From: a phage
Sequence record: NC_135731.1
DNA: 64,000 bases
Strand: one strand, 5' to 3'
Under the pieces are notes generated by a model that was given only the letters and a program-made list of their open reading frames with translations, searched no databases and was not told the origin of the DNA. Numbering within the stretch: the stretch's first letter is position 1; every line of letters begins with the position of its first letter. Below are positions 2,504 through 64,000 of the stretch, piece by piece. A program made the position numbers and the translations under genes.

Positions 2504-3289
2504 TTAGATAAAACGCTTGAACATAGAAGGTGATGAGATTGATGGAATCACACAAGGAAGTGCTACCTCCTCTTTCTCCAGGAAATTAATCGCAGAAGCT
2601 ACACAGTCGGCCCAGTCGTCTTTTCTGTTAAATGTTGATCTTTCCCCGTTGAATTTTTCAAGTTCAGTCAGAAATGCTTCCAGAGTATCAGGATGGAAAC
2701 TGGATTTTACAATCCTCACCATTCCTTGTTGGGCAAGATTGGCAAAAGGTGAGAACCTTGTCAGTTTAGATTTGTTGGAAGGCATCGGGTCTTCTTCAAC
2801 CCTGAACCCTTCGGCGAGCAAGGATCTGGAGGAGGTTAAGAACTCACTCTTACCTGCCTGACCGGGGTCCACAGAGAATACGATTATACAATCATCACCA
2901 TCAAACTGCGCCTGTTTCCTGATGATCACATCTCGTTCACCAGCCTTTTTACAAAACTTACCTTCCAGACCTGTGGAATACCTCCCGTCATCCACGTTCT
3001 CAGGACAATAATCACCGGACAGGTAATAAAAGCCGTCACTATCTTTACTTACCTTAACACTGGCGGTAAAGTCAGGAAATTTATTACCGGAAGTTCTCTC
3101 GGTTCCTGCCTTATCCCATGCCCTGCAAGATACTGATCCAAGAGGTACTCTATCGGCATCACGAAGGAAAGATCTTTGAAAATAGTTTGCACCCTCAGGC
3201 TTTGCAAACCAGTTACCATGGAGAAGCTGAGCTTTTTCCAGCTCTGGTAGACCTTCGAGGAAAGCAAGGTATTCTGGGTTGTCTCTCAA
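2504..3289 (-). CDS. terL: terminase large subunit, C-terminal exon (nuclease domain)
   Basis: 261 aa fragment with no N-terminal ATPase motifs; frame open upstream to about 3310; separated from middle exon by HNH-containing insertion. Confidence 0.6.
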   Translation of the reverse strand: MRDNPEYLAFLEGLPELEKAQLLHGNWFAKPEGANYFQRSFLRDADRVPLGSVSCRAWDKAGTERTSGNKFPDFTASVKVSKDSDGFYYLSGDYCPENVDDGRYSTGLEGKFCKKAGERDVIIRKQAQFDGDDCIIVFSVDPGQAGKSEFLTSSRSLLAEGFRVEEDPMPSNKSKLTRFSPFANLAQQGMVRIVKSSFHPDTLEAFLTELEKFNGERSTFNRKDDWADCVASAINFLEKEEVALPCVIPSISSPSMFKRFI

Positions 3290-4280: not shown

Positions 4281-4571
4281 TCATTTAATGGTTGCGCCTA
4301 TGAACGAGAATGACAACGGTCTTGGCTTGATCTCTACACCCAGTCCGTTAACCGTGGTGTATTTCTCTATCAACTCTTCCTTAGAGTCTCCCCAAATAAA
4401 TTCACCGTCGCGTCGGATAAAATATCTTTTCTTACCGCATTTTTCCGGATCTGGATACCCTTCATCGTCCAACCACCATCTAACCAGTTTGGCAAGCATG
4501 TGTTCTGAATCGGGGTTACAGCTGATAACCATTCTTGATGGATACTTTGACTGAGATCGCAGACGAGACAT
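4281..4571 (-). CDS. terL: terminase large subunit, middle exon
   Basis: SRMVISCNPD...LVRWWLDDEGYPD typical of terminase middle region; frame open upstream to about 4607; true splice junctions not determined. Confidence 0.55.
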   Translation of the reverse strand: MSRLRSQSKYPSRMVISCNPDSEHMLAKLVRWWLDDEGYPDPEKCGKKRYFIRRDGEFIWGDSKEELIEKYTTVNGLGVEIKPRPLSFSFIGATIK

Positions 4572-5484
4572 CAGGTAGTCTATCTGCTCCCATTCGAATT
4601 GTGTCGTTTATGTTCAGGCAAGGTCGCTAGTCTTGCCCCGCCATTTTCAGGCAGCTGCATGTCTCCATGCAGACCAGACTATATCTTATGAATGTGTAAA
4701 TACTCTGCCGCTCTAAGAATAGTTTCCTCATCTTCTTGGAAGAAACCTAAAGCTCTGTTGCATTTATCACAAAGCAACCCTCTTACAGCACCAGTTTTAT
4801 GGTCATGATCAACACAAAAGAAATCTCTGTACCCTTGCGTCCTATACTCATCGAGAGATATTCTACAAATGGCACACTTATGATCTTGATCTGAGAGTAG
4901 ACGATAGTATTCATCTTTTGTTATGTGAAATTTCTTCTCAATCTGATAAAACTTTTCACACATCTTACACCTGTTCGTAACCAGATATACTTTACCATAG
5001 TCACGTTTTGTGTAAAAACTATCAGCGAGCATACTTTCATGACAAGATTTGCATTCAAAAAGTTCACCTTTCTTCAGCAAGTCTTGAATAAATAATGCTG
5101 CGTCATCTCTCTTAACCATATTTTTGTTTTTACGAGATCCACCCTTCCTGTAGTACATATAGCATTCCTTGCATGTACCTGAGTATCCATCCTTGCTCTT
5201 AGATGATAAAAAGAAATCATCAATAGGTAGAACTCTTTGGCAATCCATACATTTTTTAGTATTACACATTCATCCTCCCGTTTCGAATCGCTTGATTCTA
5301 CGTCTTTCGACTAGTCGTTGAACGTTCATCCTCTCGGATGCTTCGCTGCGGATTATCTAAATTAACACACTGTTACCATACCTTCGATCTCTCTTCGAAG
5401 CCTCTATTATGTTACCATAGCAGGTTGGTGGTGTCAATAATAAAGATTTCCCCGCAATTAGGGAGGTTTTACGAGAGCTACAAA
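4572..5484 (-). mobile_element. putative group I intron 1 in terL, carrying EndoVII-like homing endonuclease
   Basis: Non-coding flanks around nuclease ORF; shared motifs gatatagtctgg and agactag (minus sense) just downstream of the ORF stop; boundaries approximate. Confidence 0.5.
4679..5269 (-). CDS. endonuclease VII-like (zinc-binding) homing endonuclease, intron-encoded
   Basis: Signature CVDHDHKTGAVRGLLCDKCNRALG matches the DHDH-TG-RG-LC-CN core of T4 endonuclease VII family; additional CxxC pairs. Confidence 0.75.
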   Translation of the reverse strand: MCNTKKCMDCQRVLPIDDFFLSSKSKDGYSGTCKECYMYYRKGGSRKNKNMVKRDDAALFIQDLLKKGELFECKSCHESMLADSFYTKRDYGKVYLVTNRCKMCEKFYQIEKKFHITKDEYYRLLSDQDHKCAICRISLDEYRTQGYRDFFCVDHDHKTGAVRGLLCDKCNRALGFFQEDEETILRAAEYLHIHKI

Positions 5485-5913
5485 TTAACCCTCATCGAAG
5501 CAAACCATGGTATACTCAAGCCCCTGGTGGTTAAGCTTATCTTGTACATACTCCATATGGCAGTATTTTACAACAGCTCCCTTTTTGCTTCTATCCCACT
5601 TACCAGTGTTCGGATCAAACCGTGGAAAAATGAACTTATGATCCTTCTCTCTGAACTTTGGCTTAATGTTTTCAGGCAGATCACTATAAATAGCTACTGC
5701 TTTAGGCCATAGTCCACCCTCACCTTCCAACTGTGGGGTTGTTCTTCGGAACATAACCACAGAACTATGGGGGTCATCAATAATTTTAAGTGGCATCAAC
5801 TGCAAGAGGAACGACTTGCCAGACCCTGCGGCACCGCCGATTACCAAAATATCTGCATCGTTTTCTAGGATCATCTTCTGCTTTTCAGAACACGGTCCGT
5901 AAATCTTAGACAT
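5485..5913 (-). CDS. terL: terminase large subunit, N-terminal exon (ATPase)
   Basis: Walker A VIGGAAGSGKSF; ends ...MVCFDEG (Walker B-like) immediately before in-frame stop, as expected at a group I 5' splice site. Confidence 0.65.
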   Translation of the reverse strand: MSKIYGPCSEKQKMILENDADILVIGGAAGSGKSFLLQLMPLKIIDDPHSSVVMFRRTTPQLEGEGGLWPKAVAIYSDLPENIKPKFREKDHKFIFPRFDPNTGKWDRSKKGAVVKYCHMEYVQDKLNHQGLEYTMVCFDEG

Positions 5914-6200
5914 TAACCTCTCTCCTTTGGAAACAGTGTTCTAATATAGTCTTGCAAAATGATCAATTTAGCTCTATCATTGCTACAAGACAGATTATTA
6001 TCCCTCATAATGCCAGAATTCACTGCATCTGGAGCACCTTTCTTCAAAGGCATAGCTTTAGCAGGTGGTTTCATGGCACCTTCCGGGGGTTTAACAATCA
6101 ACCTTCCTACATCCGGAGGGTCAATCTTGTATTCTCTCTCAACGCTGGTTGCACACCCACATAATAACAAGCACACAATAAACAGTGTAGCAACTCTCAT
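5913..6200 (-). CDS. putative o-spanin (outer-membrane lipoprotein, Rz1-like)
   Basis: Signal peptide with lipobox-like LLLCGCATS, proline-rich, 95 aa, overlaps upstream i-spanin-like gene by 4 nt. Confidence 0.4.
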   Translation of the reverse strand: MRVATLFIVCLLLCGCATSVEREYKIDPPDVGRLIVKPPEGAMKPPAKAMPLKKGAPDAVNSGIMRDNNLSCSNDRAKLIILQDYIRTLFPKERG

Positions 6201-6595
6201 CTATCCCCCTGATTGATACTCTCATTATAAATATCTATAAGCTGATCAGGAAGTGTTGACTTCTTACCTTCAGGTGATTGGAGGTAGATAATCTGCTTTT
6301 CTCTACCTGCCCTCTCAGCTATATTTAATTTATCCTGCAGATCAGAAAGAGATTTTTCAAGGTTTTTAACCTCCTCTGCGTGGCCCATTTTAATTTTGTC
6401 GGCCTGCTTTTGTTGCTGATCAAGGATCCGTTCCCACTTTAACTCTGTTGCTGACACACCATCTTGGTAGGCATCATTAAGCTTAGAGTTAAACCAATAC
6501 ACGGCCCCAAGATAAGCTGCACCTATAGCCGCTGCAAAAACTAAACCTTTTATGATCCCTCTATACCTACTCAGCCATGTTAAACCTGAAATCAT
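6197..6595 (-). CDS. putative i-spanin (Rz-like)
   Basis: N-terminal TM segment (LVFAAAIGAAYLGAVYWF) followed by charged coiled-coil-like region; paired with lipoprotein gene. Confidence 0.4.
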   Translation of the reverse strand: MISGLTWLSRYRGIIKGLVFAAAIGAAYLGAVYWFNSKLNDAYQDGVSATELKWERILDQQQKQADKIKMGHAEEVKNLEKSLSDLQDKLNIAERAGREKQIIYLQSPEGKKSTLPDQLIDIYNESINQGDR

Positions 6596-6604
6596 TTTAA
6601 GGCT

Positions 6605-6640
6605 CCAGAAACGAAAAAACCCCGCAGCTATACAGCTAAC
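6605..6640 (-). terminator. rho-independent terminator (minus strand)
   Basis: Minus-sense hairpin CCCCGTTAGCTGTATAGCTGCGGGG followed by TTTTTTCG, downstream of gene 6701..6970. Confidence 0.55.
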
Positions 6641-6700
6641 GGGGCGGGTTAAAATTGAGTAACCTAAATAGATCGAAACTAACTAAAAGGAGACTAATAC

Positions 6701-6970
6701 TTATCGAGGCACTCGGTGGATGATTCTAACAGTAACTGCATTTTCATTCATCAAGTATGCATCTACATCTCTGTAAATATAAAACTTCTGCTCACTATCA
6801 ACAACACAAGCTACCGCCCCTTCAGAGTTGTCTTCAAAAAAGACCACCACTGCATCGCAGCTGAGTTCATGATATGACTCTCGAAGATTTACAGCCAGAG
6901 GATTGAAATCGTCACGAAAATCTACAGTATGGGTTGGATTTACACGCTCTACAATTTTAAGTGTATACAT
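6701..6970 (-). CDS. hypothetical protein
   Basis: 89 aa ORF, minus strand, between tRNA cluster and spanins. Confidence 0.35.
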   Translation of the reverse strand: MYTLKIVERVNPTHTVDFRDDFNPLAVNLRESYHELSCDAVVVFFEDNSEGAVACVVDSEQKFYIYRDVDAYLMNENAVTVRIIHRVPR

Positions 6971-7016
6971 TTTAAAGGTTCCTTTCGTTTGTATATGTTT
7001 AAAGTATAACTAAAGG

Positions 7017-7093
7017 TGGTCTCCACGGAGTGATTCGAACACTCGACCTCCTGATCCCAAATCAGGCGCTCTACCAAGCTGAGCTACGCGGAG
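7017..7093 (-). tRNA. tRNA-Pro (anticodon UGG)
   Basis: Minus sense CTCCGCGTAGCTCAGCTTGGTAGAGCGCCTGATTTGGGATCAGG...GTTCGAATCACTCCGTGGAGACCA; cloverleaf hand-folded, anticodon loop TTTGGGA, encoded CCA. Confidence 0.7.
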
Positions 7094-7104
7094 TATTTAT
7101 AATT

Positions 7105-7179
7105 TGGTGGCCCTGGGTGGAATTGAACCACCGTCTGGCGATTATGAGTCGCTTGCTTGAACCTTCCAGCTACAGGGCC
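7105..7179 (-). tRNA. tRNA with CAU anticodon (Met, fMet or Ile-lysidine)
   Basis: Minus sense GGCCCTG...anticodon loop CTCATAA...GGTTCAATTCCACCCAGGGCCACCA; acceptor and T-arm pair well, D-stem weak. Confidence 0.6.
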
Positions 7180-7180
7180 A

Positions 7181-7256
7181 TGGTGCTGATGGCAGGACTT
7201 GAACCTGCAACCTATTGATTACAAATCAATTGCACTACCAATTGTGCTACATCAGC
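7181..7256 (-). tRNA. tRNA-Thr (anticodon UGU)
   Basis: Minus sense GCTGATGTAGCACAATTGGTAGTGCAATTGATTTGTAATCAAT...GGTTCAAGTCCTGCCATCAGCACCA; all four arms fold. Confidence 0.75.
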
Positions 7257-7262
7257 AAAAAG

Positions 7263-7360
7263 GTGCTAGGTGATGGAATCGAACCATCTATGTATTCAAC
7301 GACTACCTCGTCTATTTTCAGGATTAAAAATCCTCGCCCTTGCCAAAGGGCTTACCTAGC
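7263..7360 (-). tRNA. atypical tRNA-like element (about 98 nt; anticodon unresolved, possibly UUU)
   Basis: Perfect acceptor stem GCTAGGT/ACCTAGC, D-arm GCCC..GGGC and T-arm GATGGTTCGATTCCATC, but about 31 nt lie between anticodon stem and T-stem and CCA is not encoded. Confidence 0.35.
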
Positions 7361-7458
7361 TCAGTATGTTGACCATGTTGCTAGTCGGCGATGACGACTG
7401 TAACATTTGATAATCCGGTTCTGCTTCCGGCTTTCGCTTAATTACAAGGCCAACAATG

Positions 7459-7549
7459 TGGCGGAGAGTAATGGAATCGAACCATCATCGAGTCATCCTC
7501 AATGGGACGGTTTTCAAGACCGCTTGAGCACCATTGCTCCCTACCCTCC
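7459..7549 (-). tRNA. tRNA-Ser (anticodon UGA), type II
   Basis: Minus sense GGAGGGT...anticodon arm GCGGTCTTGAAAACCGT...long variable arm...GGTTCGATTCCATTACTCTCCGCCA; 91 nt; anticodon arm matches E. coli tRNA-Ser(UGA). Confidence 0.65.
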
Positions 7550-7663
7550 TTTATAAATTATACTGATAATGACACTGATTTTCGAGCAGTTAGTGACTAG
7601 TATAAACGACGATAAATATCAATGCCATTATCTGTATTATTTATGCATCTAAAAATATAAATT

Positions 7664-7750
7664 TGGTGGGGAGTGGTGGAGTCGAACCACCCGAGTCGCA
7701 ATGACAATAGATTTACAGTCTACACCGCTACCTCTACGGGATAACTCCCC
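7664..7750 (-). tRNA. tRNA-Tyr (anticodon GUA), type II
   Basis: Minus sense GGGGAGT...TAGACTGTAAATCTA...GGTTCGACTCCACCACTCCCCACCA; 87 nt; anticodon loop CTGTAAA. Confidence 0.65.
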
Positions 7751-7754
7751 AATT

Positions 7755-7829
7755 TGGCACCCCGTACTGGACTCGAACCAGTGTCAACGGCTTAGAAGGC
7801 CGCTGCTTTATCCACTAAGCTAACAGGGT
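7755..7829 (-). tRNA. tRNA-Arg (anticodon UCU)
   Basis: Minus sense ACCCTGTTAGCTTAGTGGATAAAGCAGCGGCCTTCTAAGCCGT...CTGGTTCGAGTCCAGTACGGGGTGCCA; A1:U72 acceptor pair. Confidence 0.6.
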
Positions 7830-7925
7830 ACTGGGTGGCTTTCTTTTACACCTTAGCCGCCAGAAAAGGTGGGAGACCATGTTTACAATATTACACTGTT
7901 AAGCAAAGTTTGTCAAGAAAATATT

Positions 7926-8264
7926 TTAGCTATTGCTAACAGGCTGTATTTCTGTAGTAAATGGCATAAAAGGTGCTGGTTTTTCAGCCTCTTCTACTAC
8001 CACCTCTTCCTCTTCACCAAACATCTCATCATATTCTTCCTGCATTCGGTCTGCCTTATCAAGAACATACTCTGCAATGCTTTGACGAATATTTTGTTTG
8101 GTTTTCGGGTCCAACATCAGCTCTCTTAAAACTTTGTGAGCTTCTGGAACCATCGCTATAAAAGATTCCTTCATATCAAGGATGTTCTTCTCTAGCTGAA
8201 TGGCGTTGGACTCCTCTTTCAGAGGTCTGCCTCTACGGCGACGCTTTTTAGTTGTATCCGCCAT
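7926..8264 (-). CDS. hypothetical protein (basic N-terminus, acidic C-terminus)
   Basis: Track ORF 7926..8384; start re-set to internal ATG (MADTTKKRRRRGRPLK...) after the GC-rich ORF-free segment. Confidence 0.4.
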   Translation of the reverse strand: MADTTKKRRRRGRPLKEESNAIQLEKNILDMKESFIAMVPEAHKVLRELMLDPKTKQNIRQSIAEYVLDKADRMQEEYDEMFGEEEEVVVEEAEKPAPFMPFTTEIQPVSNS

Positions 8265-54920: not shown

Positions 54921-55108
54921 ATTTTACCCCCTATGTAGTCCGGTCGGTTTTTCTCTGTCATACGCTTAAGCAATTCTTGCATGTTGCTTATGGCTTGTAG
55001 TGTATCCTCTTCAAGGGATGAATCAAGATAATCAGGATCATTCTTCACCTTGCAATGATTATGATAACGCAGTACCGCCAGTACTTTTTTAACTTCTTCC
55101 GCTGTCAT
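54917..55108 (-). CDS. hypothetical protein
   Basis: 63 aa; weak RBS. Confidence 0.3.
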   Translation of the reverse strand: MTAEEVKKVLAVLRYHNHCKVKNDPDYLDSSLEEDTLQAISNMQELLKRMTEKNRPDYIGGKI

Positions 55109-55253
55109 TATCGCGCCTAAAACAATGAGTTAATATATAACACCAGATCGCTGACTACCAGGACAACATTAATCAGCACATACCTAACCATAAAGGGAAA
55201 GATCGCCAGCATTGCCGCCACGATCCCCATGGTAATAATTATCTTTCTTATGG

Positions 55254-55538
55254 TTAACGGTTCACGTAAGTTTTCCCGTTCACGGTTATGGGCAGATCCT
55301 CCAGGTCTGGATCTTCCTTAAGGTCGCGAGCAAGCTCACCGCACCGGATACCCTCGAATCCGTAGTACTCTGTTGTGCCGTCCTTAAAAGTTTTAGCGGC
55401 AAGGCATAAGCGATAAGTAACCCCGATTTGATTGACGGCATGAATATCCGTTAGATTAACCTCTTTTGCCAGCTCTTTAGCCATTACAGGCGCATTAAGT
55501 CCAACAACCAGGGTAACCACTGCGATCATCTTTTTCAT
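55254..55538 (-). CDS. small secreted/periplasmic protein
   Basis: Signal peptide MKKMIAVVTLVVGLNAPVMA; 94 aa with two Cys. Confidence 0.45.
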   Translation of the reverse strand: MKKMIAVVTLVVGLNAPVMAKELAKEVNLTDIHAVNQIGVTYRLCLAAKTFKDGTTEYYGFEGIRCGELARDLKEDPDLEDLPITVNGKTYVNR

Positions 55539-55629
55539 TGTGTCTATCCTCTTTCTGCTACGTTTAAGGCGGCGGTAACCGCCTGTTTATGCTTTGTTGG
55601 TTAATTTTCAGGTATCTGTATAAATTAAA

Positions 55630-55869
55630 CTATGCTGTACGCTCAACTATAACAACGGTTTGGGGGATCTCCCCTTCCACCACTAGTAAGGCCTTTTTCT
55701 GCGTGATAGATATCTTTACCCGTTGCAGCGTGGCGGTGAAGTCTTTCATTTCGTCACGCGGTGTTTTAGTGCAGTACCAGATCTCAGGCTTGCCGATCTG
55801 TAAGTTGCGTAAAAATTCCGTTTTGCCTGTTTTGTTTTTGTAACCGTTATAACCTTTATTGCTTTTCAT
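55630..55869 (-). CDS. hypothetical protein
   Basis: Track ORF 55630..55950; start re-set to ATG with AGAGG RBS (MKSNKGYNGYKNK...). Confidence 0.4.
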   Translation of the reverse strand: MKSNKGYNGYKNKTGKTEFLRNLQIGKPEIWYCTKTPRDEMKDFTATLQRVKISITQKKALLVVEGEIPQTVVIVERTA

Positions 55870-56211
55870 GGTGTTTACCTCTTCTTTGTTCCAGGTGGCG
55901 GACCATTCCACCGCCTTATGTATTATGCTTTGTAAGATGGCTGTTGTCAAACTATTTTAACGATAATCATCGTACGCTTTATTAACCTGGCGGATATAAC
56001 ATTCAAAAGCCAGATCAATAGATTTATATTCACGGCTATACTCACCATAGGAAACCACATACATTTCTATAGCTTCCTCATATGCGAGGAGAATAGAATC
56101 TAAGCCTACGATCTCGGTCTTTGCAATAATAGCCATGATTTTTATCCTCTTTGTGGTTGGTGGGGCTTGTTGCTCCCTTTGATTTATATATTACAGTTTT
56201 ATATGGTCATG

Positions 56212-56445
56212 TCAACTATTTTCAAAAAATTTTTCTGCTGTGATATTCTTCCCGGTAGGGTTCGCTACTTTCAAAATTCTATCATGCACCGGACGCCCGA
56301 AAGAATAAGATCCGTATACAGTAAACCAATAATCACCGTCAGGCTGTACTATTACCGCCGCATATGGTACGCCTTTCTCGTTATTGCTAACAAAATAGAT
56401 CACATTGCCATTAATAGCCTCGGTGCGTTTAATTTGTTCCATCAT
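56212..56445 (-). CDS. hypothetical protein
   Basis: 77 aa; RBS. Confidence 0.4.
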   Translation of the reverse strand: MMEQIKRTEAINGNVIYFVSNNEKGVPYAAVIVQPDGDYWFTVYGSYSFGRPVHDRILKVANPTGKNITAEKFFENS

Positions 56446-56509
56446 GATGATTTACCTCTCTTTATTTTCATAATTTTATGCTGTAGGGGCCTTTTCGGCC
56501 CCGCCAGGT

Positions 56510-56794
56510 TTATTTATTGATAGCGTGCAGCGGGAAAGCTACGCCAGGTTGATAAATAACCTTTACAACCTCATCAGGACAAAAGAAGTTGCAGAACTCA
56601 CCGCAGTAGGCCTCATCCTCTTTCAACTCTTCATTAACATACTCAAAAAAGTAGTCGATGCTTGGATAATCCTGGCCGGGATTATAGTCAACCATCGTTA
56701 ATAATAACTCTTGATCATTCCGTAGGATATGCATACCCGCTTTTAAGTATTTTGCTTCCATTTCTACTACATCGCCAGCGGTAACAATAGCCAT
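56510..56794 (-). CDS. hypothetical acidic protein
   Basis: 94 aa; GGGGGCCTCCCCC hairpin in leader. Confidence 0.4.
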   Translation of the reverse strand: MAIVTAGDVVEMEAKYLKAGMHILRNDQELLLTMVDYNPGQDYPSIDYFFEYVNEELKEDEAYCGEFCNFFCPDEVVKVIYQPGVAFPLHAINK

Positions 56795-56926
56795 GATTTT
56801 AACTCCTATCTATCTGGTCAATGATTGGGGGCCTCCCCCTCGACAACTCTTATTATCCATATTGTCGGGAATGATGCAAGTACTTCTTTAAAAATTTTTT
56901 AAGCTCCTTAGGGCCGTTGTAACGTC

Positions 56927-56958
56927 AAAACAATAAAGGCTATGCGATTGCATAGCCT
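56927..56958 (-). terminator. rho-independent terminator (minus strand)
   Basis: Minus-sense hairpin AGGCTATGCAATCGCATAGCCT followed by TTATTGTTTT, downstream of 56996..57346. Confidence 0.5.
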
Positions 56959-56995
56959 GCTAGTGTTTAGGTCGCTGTAGGCCCTGCCTGGGGCC

Positions 56996-57346
56996 TTATT
57001 TTGCATTCTTGCCTGTATTGCCGCCACGGTACCAGCGTTTGCGGTGAAAATGGTAATAATCACCCTCGGCATTAAACATCAGATGATTTTCAATAACCAG
57101 CTTACGAAGGTGGGCCGGATCTTGTTCCATTCTTGCCAGATTCCGGCGGCTGTTACGTAAACGGATAAATTCCATATTCAGGCCGTTGATTGCAGCATGG
57201 ATGTTAAAGTAACCACCTTTGAGACGTTCACGCATGGTGTTAAGCTCAACACAATATACAGATTTCTCACAAATCAAGGTATTAGCTAGGGCGCGGACCT
57301 GGGCAAGGTGGTTAAGCTCATTAAGGTAATATAATTTAACTTTCAT
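56996..57346 (-). CDS. hypothetical basic protein
   Basis: 116 aa. Confidence 0.4.
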   Translation of the reverse strand: MKVKLYYLNELNHLAQVRALANTLICEKSVYCVELNTMRERLKGGYFNIHAAINGLNMEFIRLRNSRRNLARMEQDPAHLRKLVIENHLMFNAEGDYYHFHRKRWYRGGNTGKNAK

Positions 57347-57363
57347 AAAATCACCTGTTGAAA

Positions 57364-57672
57364 TTAGTTTGAGAAAACATCGTTCACAATAGCGATCACA
57401 ATGCCGCCCACCTTGTCACGGTCAACAATGCACAAATCACCATAGATCATGTGGTAGTCTGGATGATCTTTCACAGAATAGTCAATAAGTGTTTTCTTGT
57501 CATCCAGCTTCGTAACTTCCATTCTCATAACGATATGAGAATCATCAAAGGCATTATTCCGAAAAGTCATAGCCTGACCGCCAGGGCACCCAGTGATCTC
57601 CACTTCCACACCATCTACGATCTGACCATCAAAGAAATAAAGATTATTAGCCTGGATAAACATGTCTATCAC
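57364..57672 (-). CDS. hypothetical protein
   Basis: 102 aa; AAGGAG RBS; preceded by the 45-bp palindromic element. Confidence 0.4.
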   Translation of the reverse strand: MIDMFIQANNLYFFDGQIVDGVEVEITGCPGGQAMTFRNNAFDDSHIVMRMEVTKLDDKKTLIDYSVKDHPDYHMIYGDLCIVDRDKVGGIVIAIVNDVFSN

Positions 57673-57709
57673 TCCTTGTTAACTGCGTGGTATTTTAACA
57701 GGGTTTAAA

Positions 57710-57759
57710 TTTACTTTATTGATGGCCCTGGAGTCAAGGCCATCTAAAAATAAATTTTA
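57710..57759. repeat. conserved palindromic intergenic element, copy 1
   Basis: TTTACTTTATTGATGGCCCTGGAGTCAAGGCCATCTAAAAATAAATTTTA; stem GATGGCC/GGCCATC; minus sense contains TTGACT. Confidence 0.7.
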
Positions 57760-57764
57760 CAGGC

Positions 57765-57947
57765 CTACAATCTCTTTGATTCGTTTAACCGCTGCTGGGG
57801 GTAAAAATTATGGTAACCAATCACGCGAGTGATACTAATCGCCGTTTGATGATCTTCATAGTCGCCCTTGAAGATTTCTTGACCGTCAAGCAGCACGGCA
57901 ATTTTTTCTTCTTTTTTGAAGTTAATAACGCGGATATTGTTGCTCAT
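57765..57947 (-). CDS. hypothetical protein
   Basis: 60 aa. Confidence 0.3.
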   Translation of the reverse strand: MSNNIRVINFKKEEKIAVLLDGQEIFKGDYEDHQTAISITRVIGYHNFYPQQRLNESKRL

Positions 57948-58429
57948 TTTGTTTCTCCTTTCTGGTTTTTGTGGTGGTGGGGATTAGCTCCACCGTTGAT
58001 TGTTATTATCCACATTCCGGACCGGATTGCAACACCCCGGAAGAAAAAATTTTTTTTTAAAAGATAGGCCCCCATGATCGGGGGCCGTTATCAGTTACTT
58101 ACAGCGATAAAATACATCCCTACGCCTAACAATATTTCAAGGGCGATGATCTCAAGCCATACCATAGCACGGCGCGCCTTATCGGTGCGGGGCTTATCCT
58201 TGGTTGTCATCGTCTCCCTCTTCCCTCCTGTTAGCAGTTACGTGGTTTGCAATGGCCCCCAGGAGTATTATCACCACGCACATTGCAAGAAAAATTATCT
58301 CTGTCGTTGTTCGATCCATTGTTATAAAATTCCTCAAGATCAGGCCTGAAAATAAAGCGTTCGTTATTGAATCCGTCACGCCAGGCGGCTGGCTTCAAAT
58401 CTTCACTAAAGGGATTAATTAACGTGGCA

Positions 58430-58801
58430 TTATTTAAACGGTTGGCCCACATATTTTCTATTCCTCTCAAATAGGCGATCCGCCTCAGTTAAACATATCT
58501 CATGGGCTTGATCTCTGGTTTTAGCCTCATCAAAAACCTGTTGTGCCAGGCTGCAGCGTAGGGAGACTGGAAGATCACTATAATAGGCGTTGACAAACGT
58601 TTGAGCGTCGTACAGGTCTGAAAATACTTTACCCTTTCTATTATTCCCCTTGTCAACAATTGCAAGGATAACCAATACAGTAGTTGCGACTACCCCCAGG
58701 AAAATAGATATAATAAACCATAAAAAGGCGGATCTTCCCATCTTGCCAGCGATCCAGGCGTTAAACAAGGCAACCAATACAGCCAAAATAATAAATTCCA
58801 T
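58430..58801 (-). CDS. small membrane protein (two TM helices)
   Basis: Track ORF 58430..58834; start re-set to MEFIILAVLVALFNAWIAG with AGAGG RBS; second TM FLWFIISIFLGVVATTVLVILAIV. Confidence 0.45.
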   Translation of the reverse strand: MEFIILAVLVALFNAWIAGKMGRSAFLWFIISIFLGVVATTVLVILAIVDKGNNRKGKVFSDLYDAQTFVNAYYSDLPVSLRCSLAQQVFDEAKTRDQAHEICLTEADRLFERNRKYVGQPFK

Positions 58802-58865
58802 TCTATGTACCTCTTTTACAGTTCTGATTAACAATAAGGCGGCAAATATGCCGCCTGTTACCTGA

Positions 58866-59246
58866 TTAAAAATTATCGCCGTAAATCTTTCCGCTTTCTA
58901 CCCATACCACCACGCGAGGCATACTATCCCACACGTCTTGTTTTAGATTGAGCGCGTGCAATTCTTCGGTGGTGCTCATACCGGGCACGGGCTGATTGTA
59001 TACTGCAAAACGACCGCCTGCATAATCATAGGCCAGGGTTAAATCACACTGGATCATCTTTTTGATCATGGCATTAAGCATGGCGTTAGCCGCATATTGA
59101 TCACGTTTTAAAGGCAACTCTTTGATTAGTTTGCGATAGTTTTCGATATGGTCGCACACTGTTTCACGTGGAAGATCTTTCATATCCTCGCGAAAGGTAA
59201 CCAGGTTAAACATAACGGTGTCAATAGCTTTAGTAGTGTTTTTCAT
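58866..59246 (-). CDS. hypothetical protein
   Basis: 126 aa; promoter, 5' hairpin and AGAGG RBS upstream. Confidence 0.45.
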   Translation of the reverse strand: MKNTTKAIDTVMFNLVTFREDMKDLPRETVCDHIENYRKLIKELPLKRDQYAANAMLNAMIKKMIQCDLTLAYDYAGGRFAVYNQPVPGMSTTEELHALNLKQDVWDSMPRVVVWVESGKIYGDNF

Positions 59247-59299
59247 AATGTTTACCTCTTTGTTTTGTGTGGGGGCAAACGTCTTGCCCCTTGAGTTTT

Positions 59300-59327
59300 A
59301 ATATAGCAGGTTTTTAGATTATTGCAA
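59300..59327 (-). promoter_or_regulatory. sigma70-like promoter (minus strand)
   Basis: Minus sense TTGCAA - 16 nt - TATATT, then GGGGCAAGACGTTTGCCCC hairpin at predicted 5' end. Confidence 0.5.
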
Positions 59328-59335
59328 CACTTTAT

Positions 59336-59959
59336 TTATGAAAAACTCATCTCTCCATATTCATCCACATCAAACCGCCAATCATTGGCCTCAATAAGGC
59401 CGATCAGGTTTTCGGTAGAGAACTGTTCTAGATAGGCCTCCTCCAGGTCTACGTAAACCTTGCGGGATAGCTCCCGTACCGTCTCGGTGATCAGCTCTTC
59501 CAGATCTTCCACTTTATTTTCTTGTTTGGCGGTCAGGTATAGCCATGTAGTATCGATGTACCCGCTTACAGTGTTTTCGTGACTATAGCGGCTATATGGA
59601 TCACGCTCAACGCTTGCGGATAGTTCGCCATCGTGCATTGTGCCGAACAAGTGACGAATTGATCGGAACTTGGTCAGGGCCTTTACTTTACGCAAGAATT
59701 TTTCTAAATCCACGTTTTCCGCACTGATTGACGCGCCGTCACCCTGGCACCAAAAGCCTGACCAATGTACTTCGGTATCTTCAAGGCCATACTCTGGAAA
59801 AACATATTCTTTATAGTATTCAATTACACTTTCTGCAAAAAAGTTATCCCCGCTGTGTTCTTCTCTTTCGCGTACCATTTCAATGGCTTTTTCTTTTTGT
59901 TCGTCGGTCAGCACGTCGAAAGATAAATTGTAACCTGTGGTAATGTTAACGGTGGTCAT
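59336..59959 (-). CDS. hypothetical acidic protein
   Basis: 207 aa, largest gene of this block, very acidic; no motif recognised. Confidence 0.45.
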   Translation of the reverse strand: MTTVNITTGYNLSFDVLTDEQKEKAIEMVREREEHSGDNFFAESVIEYYKEYVFPEYGLEDTEVHWSGFWCQGDGASISAENVDLEKFLRKVKALTKFRSIRHLFGTMHDGELSASVERDPYSRYSHENTVSGYIDTTWLYLTAKQENKVEDLEELITETVRELSRKVYVDLEEAYLEQFSTENLIGLIEANDWRFDVDEYGEMSFS

Positions 59960-60016
59960 GATATTTTCTCCTGTTTTCTTTGTTAGTGGCGGGAAGTTTT
60001 CCCGCCTATGTTTTTA

Positions 60017-60044
60017 ATTATACTTATTGAGATTTACTTGTCAA
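60017..60044 (-). promoter_or_regulatory. sigma70 consensus promoter (minus strand)
   Basis: Minus sense TTGACA - 16 nt - TATAAT, then AGGCGGGAAAACTTCCCGCC hairpin and AGGAG RBS. Confidence 0.6.
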
Positions 60045-60046
60045 CA

Positions 60047-60295
60047 CTATTTTTTTAAATTATTGTGGCGCAAAATGTTTAAAATCTCCTCAACGTCATC
60101 AACACGGCGGCAATTTTTAAACGCTACCAATTGCCCCATGATTTTAATCACTGGGCGGCCTTGCCAGTGCCCCTGAAGAAAGCGCGCCTTGACTTTATCG
60201 GTGGAACTATCGCGCCACCAAATAGCCTTGTTGTTGCAGCAGTAAAAATTATTCAGGATAACATCAACTTTATCAAAATTTTTTAATTTACGCAT
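60047..60295 (-). CDS. hypothetical protein
   Basis: 82 aa. Confidence 0.4.
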   Translation of the reverse strand: MRKLKNFDKVDVILNNFYCCNNKAIWWRDSSTDKVKARFLQGHWQGRPVIKIMGQLVAFKNCRRVDDVEEILNILRHNNLKK

Positions 60296-60327
60296 GGCGT
60301 TTACTCCTTTCTCTCTTTGATGTGGTT

Positions 60328-60355
60328 AGTATAGCTAACCTGTTGACGATGTCAA
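60328..60355 (-). promoter_or_regulatory. sigma70-like promoter (minus strand) with palindrome over the -10
   Basis: Minus sense TTGACA - 16 nt - TATACT; palindrome GGTTAGCTATACTAACC spans the -10. Confidence 0.55.
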
Positions 60356-60479
60356 TGATATTTTTAACGCCATAAAACGGCCCTGGGCGATGTTTTCAGG
60401 TTAAAGGGGGGCGATTGCATAGGTGGGGGCCTTTTTGGCACTTATAGGGCCAACCAGGGGCGCTATTCGTAGGATAGAA

Positions 60480-60512
60480 ATAAAAAGCCCCGCCATTGTG
60501 CGGGGCGTTGGT
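60480..60512 (-). terminator. rho-independent terminator (minus strand)
   Basis: Minus-sense hairpin GCCCCGCACAATGGCGGGGC followed by TTTTTATTTC, downstream of 60515..60712. Confidence 0.55.
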
Positions 60513-60514
60513 TG

Positions 60515-60712
60515 TTATTTGTCTTTATGGCGGTATCGTTCCGCCTGTCGTTCACGTTCCAAAAGCAGGCCCGGTAATTTGCGATCATAGTGATTCCTCC
60601 AGATCTTCCCGAACCTTTTCGGCTTATTCAGTTTATTGTTACGCTGGCGGCGTTCCGGCAGCTCTTCGGAATCGTGGGGGCGCTTTACAATTTTTTCGAA
60701 ATTAATTTTCAT
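60515..60712 (-). CDS. small basic protein
   Basis: 65 aa, Arg/Lys-rich. Confidence 0.35.
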   Translation of the reverse strand: MKINFEKIVKRPHDSEELPERRQRNNKLNKPKRFGKIWRNHYDRKLPGLLLERERQAERYRHKDK

Positions 60713-61056
60713 AAATTTCCCCCTTTACTGATTTCAATATTTGCCTGAATCGCCCGGATACGCCGTTTTATAACCTCCTGATCCTTGCAATCATATCCCC
60801 AAAAGTCTACGATCTTTGCGCCTCCGGCCTTTAGGCGGTATAGTGTTTCTTGCATCTTGTAAGCTGGGATCGGTCGCGGTGTTACCTGGTCGCCTCTCTC
60901 ATCTTTGTACTTGATTATGCAGTCTTCGTTGTCGTTGAATACCCAAAATGGGTATTCTGTGAGCGCGTTGCTATCTTTTTCGTTTTTAGATTGGATCTTG
61001 TTTACAATTAAAGCCGTAGCAATAGCGCCAATAATAAAACTAGCCCCGCTGATCAT
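60709..61056 (-). CDS. hypothetical protein with N-terminal TM segment
   Basis: 115 aa; N-terminal FIIGAIATALIV. Confidence 0.4.
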   Translation of the reverse strand: MISGASFIIGAIATALIVNKIQSKNEKDSNALTEYPFWVFNDNEDCIIKYKDERGDQVTPRPIPAYKMQETLYRLKAGGAKIVDFWGYDCKDQEVIKRRIRAIQANIEISKGGNL

Positions 61057-61129
61057 GTACTTTCTCCTTTCATGGTGTTAATAAATTATCTTTATAGACG
61101 GCCCTGCAGCCAGGACCACCGAAAAATAA

Positions 61130-61375
61130 CTATTTCACAATGCCTACAAAACAGATCCCGCCTTCACCTATATAAGCAATGTCGGTAATTTTATAATTTG
61201 TTAAGATCCGCGTATTCAGCTCGTTAATAAAATCGGTCATCGCGTTGGTGTAGTTGTCTTCCATGTCCAGGGAATAATCCCAGGTGTAAACCTTTTTACG
61301 TCCGAAGCCTTTTACCATGATCCGGGCGCTTTTGGTGTTGGTGGGCGCATAATATTTTGTGATTAGTGCTGCCAT
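61130..61375 (-). CDS. hypothetical protein
   Basis: 81 aa. Confidence 0.4.
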   Translation of the reverse strand: MAALITKYYAPTNTKSARIMVKGFGRKKVYTWDYSLDMEDNYTNAMTDFINELNTRILTNYKITDIAYIGEGGICFVGIVK

Positions 61376-61415
61376 GGTTTTAACTCCTCATTAGTTCAGT
61401 GTTAACAGTGTAAAG

Positions 61416-61465
61416 TTTACTTTATTGATGGCCATGGAGTCAAGGCCATCTGAAAATAAATTTTA
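61416..61465. repeat. conserved palindromic intergenic element, copy 2
   Basis: TTTACTTTATTGATGGCCATGGAGTCAAGGCCATCTGAAAATAAATTTTA. Confidence 0.7.
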
Positions 61466-61804
61466 CTCGTTTTCTTCCAGCTCTGAAAGCTCTTCTTTCA
61501 CTTCTTCCAGCTCTGTCTGCAATTCCTGGTATTCTTCATCGTCCTCAATATCCAGGCTGTCGATGTAGTCGCTAAATCCGCAGCGGTAAGCGATAGGATC
61601 TAACTCCTTGAGGATACGCGACGGAAGAAAAGAAATGTTTCCGATCATAATTTCGCCGTAGATCTCGTCTAACCATTCATCATAGTTTTCGTCGTACTTG
61701 TCCTCGTCGATTTCAAAGTTATCGATCTTGTTCTCAAGGTCTGCGATCTGTTTTTTCAGCGCGGCGATCTGCATAGCTTTTTCTGCGGCGGTCATAGTAG
61801 TCAT
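61463..61804 (-). CDS. hypothetical acidic coiled-coil protein
   Basis: 113 aa, E/D-rich heptad-like sequence. Confidence 0.4.
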   Translation of the reverse strand: MTTMTAAEKAMQIAALKKQIADLENKIDNFEIDEDKYDENYDEWLDEIYGEIMIGNISFLPSRILKELDPIAYRCGFSDYIDSLDIEDDEEYQELQTELEEVKEELSELEENE

Positions 61805-61855
61805 GGTGTTTTCTCCTTTTGTGTGTTCTGGGAAGTTTTCCCGTTTACGTGTTTA

Positions 61856-61883
61856 AGTATACCGATTTGGGTTAGCTTGTCAA
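61856..61883 (-). promoter_or_regulatory. sigma70-like promoter (minus strand)
   Basis: Minus sense TTGACA - 16 nt - TATACT, followed by GGGAAAACTTCCC hairpin. Confidence 0.55.
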
Positions 61884-62037
61884 TTAAAAATTTAAGAAAA
61901 ATTTTGCAAAACTGTTGGCGCTACTCATTAACATTTGCGCCAGGATGTAACCGACAATGCAAACGATAATAGTTACCTTTGTGTATTGGCGTGCAGTGCT
62001 CATCTTAAAGCCCCCTTTTTCGCTTAGTTGAGACTAG

Positions 62038-62085
62038 TTTACTTTATTGATGGCCCTGGAGTCAAGGCCATCTGAAAATAAACTT
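62038..62085. repeat. conserved palindromic intergenic element, copy 3
   Basis: TTTACTTTATTGATGGCCCTGGAGTCAAGGCCATCTGAAAATAAACTTA. Confidence 0.7.
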
Positions 62086-62488
62086 AATAAGTTTTCAGTA
62101 CTTTCCCGTCCAACCTGTCAAGCTGGATCTCGATAGCTGTAGAAAACCTATTGTACACCACGTCGCCCATAGAATCCAACCAGTCTATGACATTATACAC
62201 TTGCTCTTTGTTCTTGCAGGTCCGGATCCGTTTCATGATGTAAGCCGGATCAATATTGGTACTCTCGTTGGTGTTCCCCTGTACCTGGTTTGCCGTATTA
62301 GTTACATCTTTAATGGCCTTTACCACCACCTGGAATGGCTTTAAGGTGCCTTTTGCGTTCATCTCACGCGCTTTTGCGGCGCGGTTGTTATATGTTACAC
62401 AACGGCGGCAAATGTTGATCAAATGCATGTCAATAATTTTTTCATCGTTTGCCAGTTCGTTCATGATGCGGCGTACGTTCTTATTCAT
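62084..62488 (-). CDS. hypothetical protein
   Basis: 134 aa; promoter, 5' hairpin, RBS upstream. Confidence 0.45.
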   Translation of the reverse strand: MNKNVRRIMNELANDEKIIDMHLINICRRCVTYNNRAAKAREMNAKGTLKPFQVVVKAIKDVTNTANQVQGNTNESTNIDPAYIMKRIRTCKNKEQVYNVIDWLDSMGDVVYNRFSTAIEIQLDRLDGKVLKTY

Positions 62489-62536
62489 GATCTTTTTCCT
62501 TCGTGTTGGCGGGAAACATTCCCGCCTTTTGTGTAT

Positions 62537-62564
62537 AGTTTACTTAAATTTTGCAGCGTGTCAA
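62537..62564 (-). promoter_or_regulatory. sigma70-like promoter (minus strand)
   Basis: Minus sense TTGACA - 16 nt - TAAACT, followed by GGCGGGAATGTTTCCCGCC hairpin. Confidence 0.5.
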
Positions 62565-62570
62565 CAATTT

Positions 62571-62969
62571 TTATTCGTGGGCGCATGTTACAATGTGCTT
62601 TTTATAGCCCAGGCGGTCAGCAAGTGCCGACAAAAACTCTTCTTCATAGATCCAGCCGTTGGCAGTGATCCCCATAGCATTTAATGCGCTCTCAAGTGCT
62701 GCGTTAGCTTTATCATAACCGTGACCGCTCGCCTTCCCGCCAGTATAGCCGTACTTATTGTTCTTGTTGTCGTGTATCCAAAAAACGCAGTAGTGAGTGT
62801 TCCCGCTGGCGGCGGCATAATACCGGATCTCAGCTACTTCGTGCAAATTATTGTCATCGTCCAGGCCCACCAGATTATAAGCCTTATAAAATCCACGATC
62901 ACGGCGGCAGTTCTTGACATCAGAAAAAGAAAAGTCCGCATTATCAAAATTAAAGGTGGTGGTTTTCAT
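62571..62969 (-). CDS. hypothetical protein
   Basis: 132 aa, Gly/Tyr-rich. Confidence 0.4.
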   Translation of the reverse strand: MKTTTFNFDNADFSFSDVKNCRRDRGFYKAYNLVGLDDDNNLHEVAEIRYYAAASGNTHYCVFWIHDNKNNKYGYTGGKASGHGYDKANAALESALNAMGITANGWIYEEEFLSALADRLGYKKHIVTCAHE

Positions 62970-63033
62970 GATTTTATCCTCTTGGTGTCTTTTGTGCTTT
63001 TAGTGTATTTGGTGTCGTACTATATGTCAATAC

Positions 63034-63231
63034 TTATTTTTTATTAAACCAGTGGTTGATCTGGCCTTTTGTCAGGGCGCAACGATTAAGCTGTTGCCGG
63101 GTATAGCTCTGACCACGACGGAATTTATAAAGGCCTTGCCCGTTGTTGATGGTTACATCCACCCGGCAAATCACTTGATCCGTGACCACCTGGCGAGTGT
63201 TGCGACGTACTTTGATTCCGTAGGCGTTCAT
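63034..63231 (-). CDS. hypothetical protein
   Basis: 65 aa, AGAGG RBS. Confidence 0.35.
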   Translation of the reverse strand: MNAYGIKVRRNTRQVVTDQVICRVDVTINNGQGLYKFRRGQSYTRQQLNRCALTKGQINHWFNKK

Positions 63232-63469
63232 GATTTTTTATCCTCTTTGTTAATTAGTGCGGTGTTGTTCACCTTGCGATAATAAGAATAACAAGAACTG
63301 CCCGAGCTGTCAACCATTATGTAAAATTATTTTTTGGGTAGAATTCTCCAGCCGCCACCCCCTGCCAGGTTTGCAAGCTTTCACTCTCCCACCTGGTCAG
63401 TTAGGTCCTGCTAGGGCTGGCCCCGCCAGGTTGCAGCGGTTGACGCACTATGTTAGAAAAATTTTTTGA

Positions 63470-63730
63470 AAAGTGTTGACAACGGCCCCACCAGGTGGCA
63501 CAATATACATATCGAAAGGACGGCAGGCACCGGTGACGGGGGAGACAACCACCGGGGATGGGCGCTGCATAAAATGAGAACGGTTATCATTATCATTTAA
63601 AAATTTATGCAAAAAGTCCTTGCTTTCTTTGTCCTGTGTGATACTATAATAACAAGCCGGGGCAGTAGGGGCCGGGAGACAATCACCGGGCCTGCCCGTT
63701 ATTCTGCAAACGAGAATGATTATCATTCAA
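63470..63730 (+). repeat. two tandem promoter-plus-structured-GC units (possible small RNA genes)
   Basis: Unit 1: TTGACA...CACAAT then GGCAGGCACCGGTGACGGGGGAGACAACCACCGGGG...GAGAACGGTTATCATTATCATT; unit 2: TTGCTT...TATAAT then GGGGCAGTAGGGGCCGGGAGACAATCACCGGGCC...GAGAATGATTATCATT. Confidence 0.4.
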
Positions 63731-63829
63731 AATTCTAAATGAGAACTCCTCGCATTTAATAAATTTAATTAGCATGCTAATTACCCTCCGTAACAATTTC
63801 CTATAAAACAGTATCCCATAAAATATTCC

Positions 63830-64000
63830 CATATAGAAATTTTAAAAATCCATTTCTGAAAACGAAAAATCGATTTCGTCCCCAAAAATTTTAGGTCGAG
63901 AGCCGGAACGATTTCCAGAAAATCCGATTCAGAAAACGAAAAACAAATCGAGTACTGAGAAATTTATCGAGAAAAATTTTCAGAAAATTCAATCTTTGAA
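63830..64000. repeat. AT-rich tandem direct repeats at window end
   Basis: Recurring TTTCTGAAAACGAAAAATCGATTT / TTCAGAAAACGAAAAACAAATCGAG / TTTTCAGAAAATTCAA units. Confidence 0.5.

Follow-up and report, generated by a model that had tools for sequence, protein, structure and literature searches.

Promoter-early stem-loop (PeSL) cassettes are repeated intergenic motifs known from T4-type phages (Arbiol et al. 2010, PMC2839356; Comeau et al. 2014, PMC4122927). A PeSL runs from a stop codon through an AT-rich tract, sigma70-like -35 and -10 hexamers and a stem-loop with G-T pairs to a Shine-Dalgarno (SD) sequence and an ATG, and in one subclass the stem-loop overlaps the -35 (PMC2839356). PeSLs mediate insertion, deletion and replacement of ORFans, with crossovers placed in the loop or near the -10 (PMC2839356, PMC4122927), and in reporter assays their stem-loops reportedly behaved as terminators or attenuators (PMC2839356). 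The RNase III sites of phage T7 (R0.3, R0.5, R1, R1.1 and R1.3) are likewise hairpins, several per genome, lying between cistrons of a polycistronic early transcript. Here we describe a repeated 45-nucleotide (nt) palindromic element in the phage sequence record NC_135731.1, of which the whole 64,000 nt analysed are called the window and supply all positions given below. We consider it moderately probable that the element is the core of a composite intercistronic module, joining a sense-RNA hairpin, a weak promoter and a recombination repeat, and that this module is the Vequintavirus counterpart of PeSL cassettes. Our literature search found no paper on such elements in rV5-like or phi92-like phages, and the databases hold only contradictory automatic labels for them.

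Positions 57000-63000 of the window match Escherichia phage phiWec196, which has a genome of 138.7 kb, at 100% identity, and over 100 rV5-like members of the genus Vequintavirus at 94-96%. Relative to the phiWec196 genome the window is reverse-complemented, and the local genes lie on the minus strand. The initial annotation of this DNA, made from the letters alone, had pointed to three near-identical copies of the element with two variable positions; both variable positions are seen in the raw sequence, and the 45-nt string has three exact plus-strand matches (the cores of copies 1 to 3 in Table 1). The number stays at three when up to three mismatches are allowed, against 0.00 expected in 100 shuffles, and the core described at that time, GATGGCC-N10-GGCCATC, also has three matches, against 0.13 expected. 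A fourth and diverged copy was found via the record of phage Murica, where a second 45-bp "terminator" is annotated downstream of the gene for 81 amino acids (aa). The motif search across the genome that had been recommended, made with an nhmmer profile and a covariance model, gives four members and no more, both in the window and in the entire phiWec196 genome; they span 4.4 kb of an early block, and the likeness of copies 1 and 2 runs about 20 nt past the core. The initial annotation was thus right on three copies, and it overlooked the fourth, the lower stem of the hairpin, its strand specificity and its link to gene cassettes.

On the minus (coding) strand, each module opens with the upstream gene's stop codon and takes the form of a two-part hairpin, the whole intercistronic module measuring 56-75 nt. 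An AU-rich lower stem of 10-11 bp, for example AAAUUUAUUUU paired with AAAGUAAAUUU, is followed by an internal loop of 2x3 nt (UA or CA opposite AAU), a GC-rich upper stem of 10 bp with one U.G pair (GAUGGCCUUG paired with CAGGGCCAUC) and an ACUC tetraloop. The sense folds of copies 1-3 reach -21.3 to -24.7 kcal/mol (z -4.8 to -6.6), the plus strand folding more weakly, and the covariance model scores the four copies at 57-80 bits in sense versus 21-43 bits in antisense. Copy 4 reads TTATTTTTC-GGTGGTCCTG-GCTG-CAGGGCCGTC-TATAAAGATAATTT on its sense strand. In all four paralogues the stop codon lies within the lower stem, so a terminating ribosome would melt that stem, and one may speculate that the hairpin is coupled to translation in this manner. 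An Rfam scan of 55000-64000 gave no credible family, only two sub-threshold chance matches; one is far from any copy and the other, SurC at 61084-61184, lies partly over copy 4 and scores 22.3 bits where the gathering score is 80 (E 0.85).

The evidence for selection comes from an alignment of 34 distinct sequences (25 main copies and 9 of copy 4) from 15 Vequintavirus loci and phage KKE7M, from which damaged main copies were excluded. Standard pairs occupy 95.7% of the pair cells, compared with 36-56% when the partners are slid by 1-3 columns, and none of 500 column shuffles matched the observed pairing or covariation score. Both-sided changes occur at four pairs of the lower stem, namely columns 5-51 (GC 12, AU 11, GU 4), columns 6-50 (UA 26, CG 3), columns 8-48 (UA, GU, AU, GC) and columns 9-47 (AU 25, UA 7), counts that rest on few independent events as the sequences are related. 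In the upper stem pairing reaches 99.7%, and changes on one side only always give G.U. When the same pairs are read antisense, pairing falls to 85.0%, with 86 G.U cells that form a pair in sense alone, versus 10 A.C cells. Variation of the main copies gathers at tetraloop positions 3-4 (ACTC, ACGC, ACAC, ACTT), and the loop of copy 4 is almost free (GCTG, GTTG, GTAA, GTGG, GTAG) with its stems kept. Similarly, in the IMG/VR genome L011, which is 85% identical overall, the stems of copy 3 are 100% kept around the loop ATAAC. Across more than 100 genomes the main-copy stems are nearly invariant, beyond what pairing alone demands. Taken as a comparative result, these patterns show that the hairpin is under selection on the sense strand. 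Because of the G.U asymmetry and the compensatory changes, we conclude that it functions as a single-stranded hairpin with the polarity of the coding strand, for which the mRNA is the simplest candidate. The initial annotation had offered a hairpin or a site for a dimeric protein; the former stands, as coding-strand RNA, and the latter loses ground, since the strand asymmetry of G.U argues against a symmetric operator of double-stranded DNA.

The element also marks the ends of gene-sized insertions or deletions. In phiWec189 and ECP26 the 134-aa gene runs straight to the 81-aa gene and a stretch of 622 bp is absent. The left part of their alignment ends at window position 62036 and the right part begins at 61463, with a 50-bp overlap in the query, which leaves a single chimeric element carrying the left flank of copy 3 and the right flank of copy 2. 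Homologous recombination between two direct repeats would yield just such a product. The same single-piece junction is found in ECP32, ime, magaca and an IMG/VR contig, bringing the cassette-less Vequintaviruses to at least five. These genomes come from different laboratories, which argues against an assembly artefact. The flanks of the cassette-bearing phages FV3 and VB-EcoM-WM are nearer to those of ECP26 than are the flanks of other cassette-less phages, which argues against a single clonal event. The event itself could be a deletion or, in reverse, the insertion of a cassette composed of the 39-aa open reading frame (ORF), a promoter, the 113-aa gene and the element. Moreover, the loop variants ACGC, ACAC and ACTT and an A-to-G change in the internal loop each occur at differing paralogous positions across genomes, a distribution that speaks for gene conversion among the copies. 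Genome comparison shows that recombination between copies lies behind the loss or gain of the 622-bp cassette and that the copies swap sequence by gene conversion.

A further case involves KKE7M, a Justusliebigvirus of the Stephanstirmvirinae, a subfamily other than that of Vequintavirus. It shares with the window a block (Table 1) whose homology ends at the 3' edge of the element. Its relatives differ at the same locus, where muut has one promoter ahead of a 171-bp gene and UAB_1 has an unrelated 216-bp gene cassette between two promoters. Set against these two phages, the left crossover of KKE7M falls in the spacer of a TTGACA promoter common to both lineages (TTGACAAG.TAAC..AAATC), and the right crossover falls in AATAAAGTAAA, a stretch that lies in the 3' part of the element and forms the end of the spacer and the -10 of the resident promoter. 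Such comparison shows an element-ended cassette to have moved to another phage subfamily, with both crossovers in promoter-type sequence. The recombination hotspot that the initial annotation had listed among its options is therefore supported by comparative genomics through the chimeric elements, the sharing of loop variants and the KKE7M crossovers.

KKE7M shares further mosaic segments with the early block, at 56148-55955, 55836-55632 and 59213-58880 (92%, 87% and 77% identity, respectively). This suggests that small early genes have been exchanged repeatedly between the subfamilies of Vequintavirus and Justusliebigvirus.

Table 1. Positions of the hairpin modules, the hexamers lying over them, the exchanged segments and other signals of the early block
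Feature	Position	Strand	Description
Copy 1, full hairpin module	57704..57759	minus	Core 57710-57754, upper stem-loop 57721-57744; neighbours are the 60-aa gene (57765-57947) and the 99-aa gene (ATG at 57663); covariance model 80.5 bits minus versus 43.2 plus; sense fold -23.6 kcal/mol, z -4.84
Copy 2, full module	61410..61465	minus	Core 61416-61460; between the 113-aa and 81-aa genes; 71.9 bits; -21.3 kcal/mol, z -6.52; one U.U mismatch in the upper stem
Copy 3, full module	62032..62087	minus	Core 62038-62082; between the 134-aa gene and the 39-aa ORF; 75.7 bits; -24.7 kcal/mol, z -6.61
Copy 4, diverged	61080..61134	minus	Between the 81-aa and 115-aa genes; TTGAC absent; upper stem GGUGGUCCUG-GCUG-CAGGGCCGUC with three G.U pairs on the sense strand; own lower stem; 57.2 bits sense versus 20.8 antisense; fold -18.6 (z -2.2) versus -9.9 kcal/mol (z -0.2)
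TTGACT-18-TAAATT, copy 1	57708..57737	minus	Consensus scan 9/12
TTGACT-18-TAAACT, copy 2	61414-61443	minus	Consensus scan 9/12
TTGACT-18-TAAACT, copy 3	62036-62065	minus	Consensus scan 9/12
Repeat-bounded 622-bp cassette	61461..62082	minus	Copy 3 and everything up to copy 2: 39-aa ORF (61884-62003), strong promoter (61856-61883), hairpin of the 5'-untranslated region (5'-UTR), 113-aa acidic gene (61463-61804)
Block shared with KKE7M	61416..61884	minus	Promoter -35, 113-aa gene, copy 2; 469 bp, 97% identical
Predicted strong promoter TTGACA-16-TAAACT	62537..62564	minus	Heads the operon with copies 3, 2 and 4
Hairpin GGCGGGAATGTTTCCCGCC	62508-62526	minus	Directly after the promoter at 62537..62564
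Predicted intrinsic terminator GCCCCGC..GCGGGGC TTTTTATTT	60487..60506	minus	With U-tract; closes the operon with copies 3, 2 and 4

As for the promoter, the initial annotation had noted TTGACT followed 18 nt on by a TAAATT-like hexamer, and the pair TTGACT and TAAA(C/T)T is indeed present on the minus strand of all three main copies. TTGACT covers the last three bases of the upper stem and the first three of the loop, and the 3' arm of the lower stem contains TAAA(C/T)T. TTGAC is unchanged in 25 of 25 intact distinct main copies while loop positions 3-4 vary; the main copies set aside as damaged depart from it. In the record of phage Gotham, copies 1 and 2 are labelled "promoter predicted by PhagePromoter", which is itself a prediction. 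The strongest point in the promoter's favour, taken from sequence alignment, comes from Justusliebigvirus, where the AATAAAGTAAA(C/T)T of the element lines up at every base with the end of the spacer and the -10 of what looks like a real TTGCAA-16-TAAACT promoter. The element has 13 nt in common with the -10 region of this promoter in UAB_1, and in KKE7M it takes the exact place of the resident promoter, ahead of the same 5'-UTR hairpin. A weak sigma70-like promoter laid over the hairpin is plausible, and promoter activity of the main copies seems to us possible, if somewhat doubtful.

The setting of the copies bears on how they might work. They sit in a block of small early-type ORFan genes, and all eight genes around them are of PHROG "unknown function" and have no Pfam domain. 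A common intergenic design recurs in this block, in which a GC hairpin comes after a sigma70 promoter close to consensus (TTGACA, 16-17 nt, TATAAT-like) and before an SD and an ATG, and canonical U-tract terminators occur at operon ends only (for example 58086-58067, 56958-56937 and the one in Table 1). The first predicted operon runs from the promoter at 62564 through the 134-aa gene, copy 3 and the 39-aa ORF to the promoter at 61883, and then through the 113-aa gene, copy 2, the 81-aa gene, copy 4, the 115-aa gene and the 65-aa gene to the terminator. The second runs from a promoter at 58032 through the 60-aa gene, copy 1, the 99-aa gene and the 116-aa gene to its terminator. All four copies are intergenic, in one orientation and between cistrons, away from the operon ends, and no strong promoter of their own is seen for the downstream 81-aa, 115-aa and 99-aa genes.

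In the composite module that we propose, three parts would be superimposed: a structured coding-strand RNA starting from the upstream stop codon, a weak sigma70-like early promoter overlying the hairpin, and a 45-50-bp direct repeat on which homologous recombination acts. The hairpin would be carried on transcripts that start at the strong upstream promoter and read through the module, since the module has no U-tract and the downstream genes have no strong promoters of their own. The hairpin would then act post-transcriptionally, most likely as a processing signal of the T7 RNase III type or as a 3'-end stabilising signal; alternatively, it may be an attenuator, as for PeSL stem-loops. For the downstream cistron, the overlapping promoter would contribute a low level of initiation. 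An RNA processing site, which was also among the initial suggestions, is plausible on grounds of geometry only.

Several points weigh against the composite module. Promoter matches of at least 9/12 are common in this AT-rich region (33 found versus 20.1 expected), the match of the element is weak, with 9/12 and a long 18-nt spacer, and the pairing of the lower stem confounds any reading of conservation at the -10 and in the T-rich upstream tract. The element does not appear in the promoter and terminator table of the rV5 genome paper, whose promoter list is stringent. Copy 4 has neither -35 nor promoter, and copy 3 of L011 has lost the promoter (TTGATA, 20-nt spacer) and kept the hairpin; the regulated promoter listed in the initial annotation is plausible but weak. 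The hairpin is not indispensable everywhere either, as a 5-nt deletion wrecks it in copy 3 of Gotham, which makes at least that copy dispensable. With regard to recombination, the KKE7M transfer rests on one assembly, and in rV5_ev146 two deletions, 62498-61991 and 60565-54515, join at 14-15-nt microhomologies off the elements. The family numbers only four copies, compared with dozens of PeSLs per T4-like genome. On positions 500-8000 of T7, the best three matches of the covariance model are weak (about 10 bits, E about 3), and they fall at what we take to be R1.1, R1 and R0.3, site positions that reportedly go back to Dunn and Studier in 1983 and that the T7 record itself does not annotate. 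Lastly, our literature search found no transcript mapping and no RNA or protein experiments for Vequintavirus phages.

The one-copy genome rV5_ev146 had been considered as a case of element-mediated deletion, and this was ruled out, both joins lying at microhomologies elsewhere; the element is a recombination site and not the only one. The phage is missing about 0.5 kb and about 6 kb from the early ORFan block, so that at least about 15 early genes, together with copies 1 and 3, are dispensable under the growth conditions used.

Among the other explanations, the one that comes nearest takes the hairpin as purely an RNase III signal of the T7 early type, cut in the internal loop of the polycistronic mRNA so that the upstream message is left with a protective 3' hairpin, the hexamers being incidental and recombination a passive by-product of repetition. 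The intercistronic position within predicted operons, the helix of about 21 bp with a small asymmetric internal loop 10 bp below the tetraloop, and the sense-specific and covarying structure would all suit it, as would copy 4 and L011 copy 3, which hold the hairpin without the promoter. T7 sites have a like geometry, and three of the four weak model matches in the T7 early region, the top three, lie at such sites. Yet the folded T7 sites have a larger internal loop and a shorter lower stem, the model scores on T7 are not significant, and the invariance of TTGAC beside varying loop bases is left unexplained, so that we hold this explanation to be rather unlikely. A terminator or attenuator cutting read-through between early cistrons is what the Murica record implies by labelling copies 1 and 4 as 45-bp "terminators". 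The upper stem is stable and GC-rich, as in Rho-independent terminators, which also follow the stop codon directly, and PeSL stem-loops acted as terminators or attenuators in reporter assays (PMC2839356). Unlike such terminators, however, the element has a U-tract on neither strand (sense tail AAUAAAGUAAA, antisense tail UAAAAAUAAA) and lies inside operons that have canonical terminators at their ends; the terminator scan detects the latter and does not report the element. A classical Rho-independent terminator is ruled out on these grounds, as the initial annotation had already held for want of a U-tract. Efficient termination would in addition silence the 81-aa, 115-aa and 99-aa genes, because they have no strong promoter of their own, and a terminating or attenuating role as the main function appears improbable.

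A double-stranded DNA operator, at which a dimeric phage or host regulator would bind the palindrome over the -35 and shut early promoters off, could account for the overlap with the -35-like hexamer and for main-copy stems conserved beyond the needs of pairing. It does not account for conservation that differs between the strands, nor for copy 4, whose 2-3 G.U pairs amount to A.C mismatches in a DNA palindrome while the fold is kept. A protein half-site model would not predict the covariation of the AU-rich lower stem, and no DNA-binding domain was found by PHROG or Pfam in the neighbouring genes; we regard an operator as very improbable. It is harder still to see the element as a functionless relic of a recent segmental duplication, kept similar only by gene conversion. 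The small family of four copies in 4.4 kb, the extended likeness of copies 1 and 2, the evident gene conversion and the damaged Gotham copy are what such a relic would leave behind. The substitutions, though, are non-random, being placed in the loop or preserving pairing, with double compensatory changes in the lower stem, and the stems are 100% kept in a genome 85% identical overall and the element in about 120 records, which leaves this explanation with hardly any likelihood. Perhaps least probable of all, by analogy with integron attC sites, the hairpin might be a dedicated strand-specific recombination site recognised as folded single-stranded DNA. Strand asymmetry, with G.T tolerated on one strand only, and cassettes made of gene plus element are compatible with it. 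If this were true, the early ORFans of Vequintavirus and Justusliebigvirus would be an integron-like pool of gene-plus-hairpin cassettes, actively exchanged within and between subfamilies.

Returning to the composite module, its likeness to PeSLs extends to position, structure and recombination. Each occurs as repeated copies between genes in early or hyperplastic regions rich in ORFans, with parts that follow one order from the stop codon through the AT-rich tract and sigma70-like hexamers to the SD and ATG. Both have a stable stem-loop with G-T pairs that can overlap the -35, and copies of both flank gene-sized indels with crossovers inside the motif or the -10 region. The two differ in that there is no sequence homology between them and that the element belongs to Vequintavirinae and Stephanstirmvirinae instead of the T4-like lineage. 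Its hairpin is two-part, of 21 bp and supported by covariation, compared with the poly-G/poly-C stem of PeSLs, and its promoter is far weaker than the consensus promoters of PeSLs. The element is, on these analogies, best described as a PeSL analogue in another phage lineage and not as a homologue.

With T7, the comparison is one of folded shape. When folded, the T7 intergenic regions give upper stems of 9-10 bp, tetraloops, G.U pairs, an internal loop and AU-rich lower stems. The element likewise has a 9-10-bp upper stem with G.U on the sense strand only, capped by a tetraloop and set on an AU-rich lower stem across an asymmetric internal loop, altogether a two-part hairpin of about two turns. 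In model terms this is resemblance and not membership: the internal loop of the element is smaller and its lower stem longer, and no significant similarity to the T7 sites was found by sequence or model. The T7 RNase III sites are not known to serve as recombination joints. The T7 record also lists minor E. coli promoters (B and C) or T7 promoters (phi1.1A, phi1.1B and phi1.3) at 1514, 3113, 5848, 5923 and 6409; with promoters in its RNase III hairpin regions, an intercistronic unit of promoter and processing hairpin would not be unique to the element.

If the composite module is accepted, the pattern known from T4-like phages, in which composite promoter and stem-loop motifs order early-gene expression and join shuffled accessory genes, would extend to two further groups of large virulent coliphages, the rV5-like and the phi92-like. 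Both groups are widely used in phage therapy collections. The same sequence is labelled automatically as "terminator" in Murica and as "promoter" in Gotham, and both of these conflicting labels are corrected here. The 622-bp cassette present or absent between repeats and the cassette crossing subfamilies offer concrete testable cases, and the covariation-supported hairpin is a clean candidate for a T7-like signal of mRNA processing or stability.

The initial annotation had raised conservation in related genomes as a test, and BLAST places the element in 120 phage records, most of them with three copies. All of these are Vequintavirus except KKE7M, including records apparently mislabelled "Campylobacter phage". 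None of 5,426 complete E. coli genomes holds a copy, which rules out a host repeat of the repetitive extragenic palindromic (REP) or bacterial interspersed mosaic element (BIME) type or a prophage repeat. Searches of IMG/VR, JGI metagenomes and GTDB genomes gave no new contexts, the genuine copies lying in the same three contexts only. When distant relatives were sought through the neighbouring 81-aa gene, only homologues of less than 46% identity in unrelated phages were found and none at intermediate distance. The sequence of L011 past copy 3 seemed at one point to be different; L011 proved to be a collinear genome at 85% identity.

The Campylobacter-labelled records deserve a mention of their own. 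The 17 MG0656xx records named "Campylobacter phage" (A135, C2, C5, C9 and others) are 94-95% identical here to E. coli Vequintaviruses, and at least one of them, C9 (MG065661), is marked UNVERIFIED. Judging from this identity, the Campylobacter host label is probably wrong.

The early block contains a second repeated motif, a minus-strand hairpin GGCGGGAA-NNN-TTCCCGCC at 59988-60006 and 62508-62526 (two exact matches versus 0 expected). Both hairpins lie directly 3' of the -10 in the strong promoters at 60044-60017 and 62564-62537 (TTGACA-16-TATAAT/TAAACT), and a shorter version, GGGAAAACTTCCC at about 61830-61845, follows the promoter at 61883-61856. They look like a second class of promoter and stem-loop cassettes, or like stabilising hairpins at the 5' end of mRNAs.

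A non-coding region of about 1.1 kb occupies 63232-64000 and runs past the end of the window. It carries iteron-like direct repeats, AAAATCC.ATTC.GAAAACGAAAAA at 63845-63891 and 63919-63965 and GGGAGACAA(C/T)CACCGGG at 63540-63556 and 63674-63690, and it matches the "non-coding" box on the rV5 genome map. This region may be a replication origin or a regulatory region.

Finally, a hairpin with the same 10+10-nt stem, GATGGCCUUG-GNRA-CAGGGCCAUC, was returned by the IMG/VR, JGI and GTDB searches from about 45 Pseudomonas or Halopseudomonas genome and prophage-like contigs (within the set L020-L086; for example L026 3415-3438, L030 4950-4973 and L078 1879-1902). It is flanked by AUUUCCUC...CGGGAAA, precedes an 81-aa ORF by 15-25 nt in the vicinity of CsrA-like and LuxR-type genes, and has no Rfam match. 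Because its flanks differ from those of the phage element and it shows compensatory stem variants of its own (GATGACC..GGGTCATC and GATGCCC..GGGGCATC), we take the identity of the stems as a probable coincidence, and the hairpin is probably an independent and hitherto undescribed structured 5'-UTR element.

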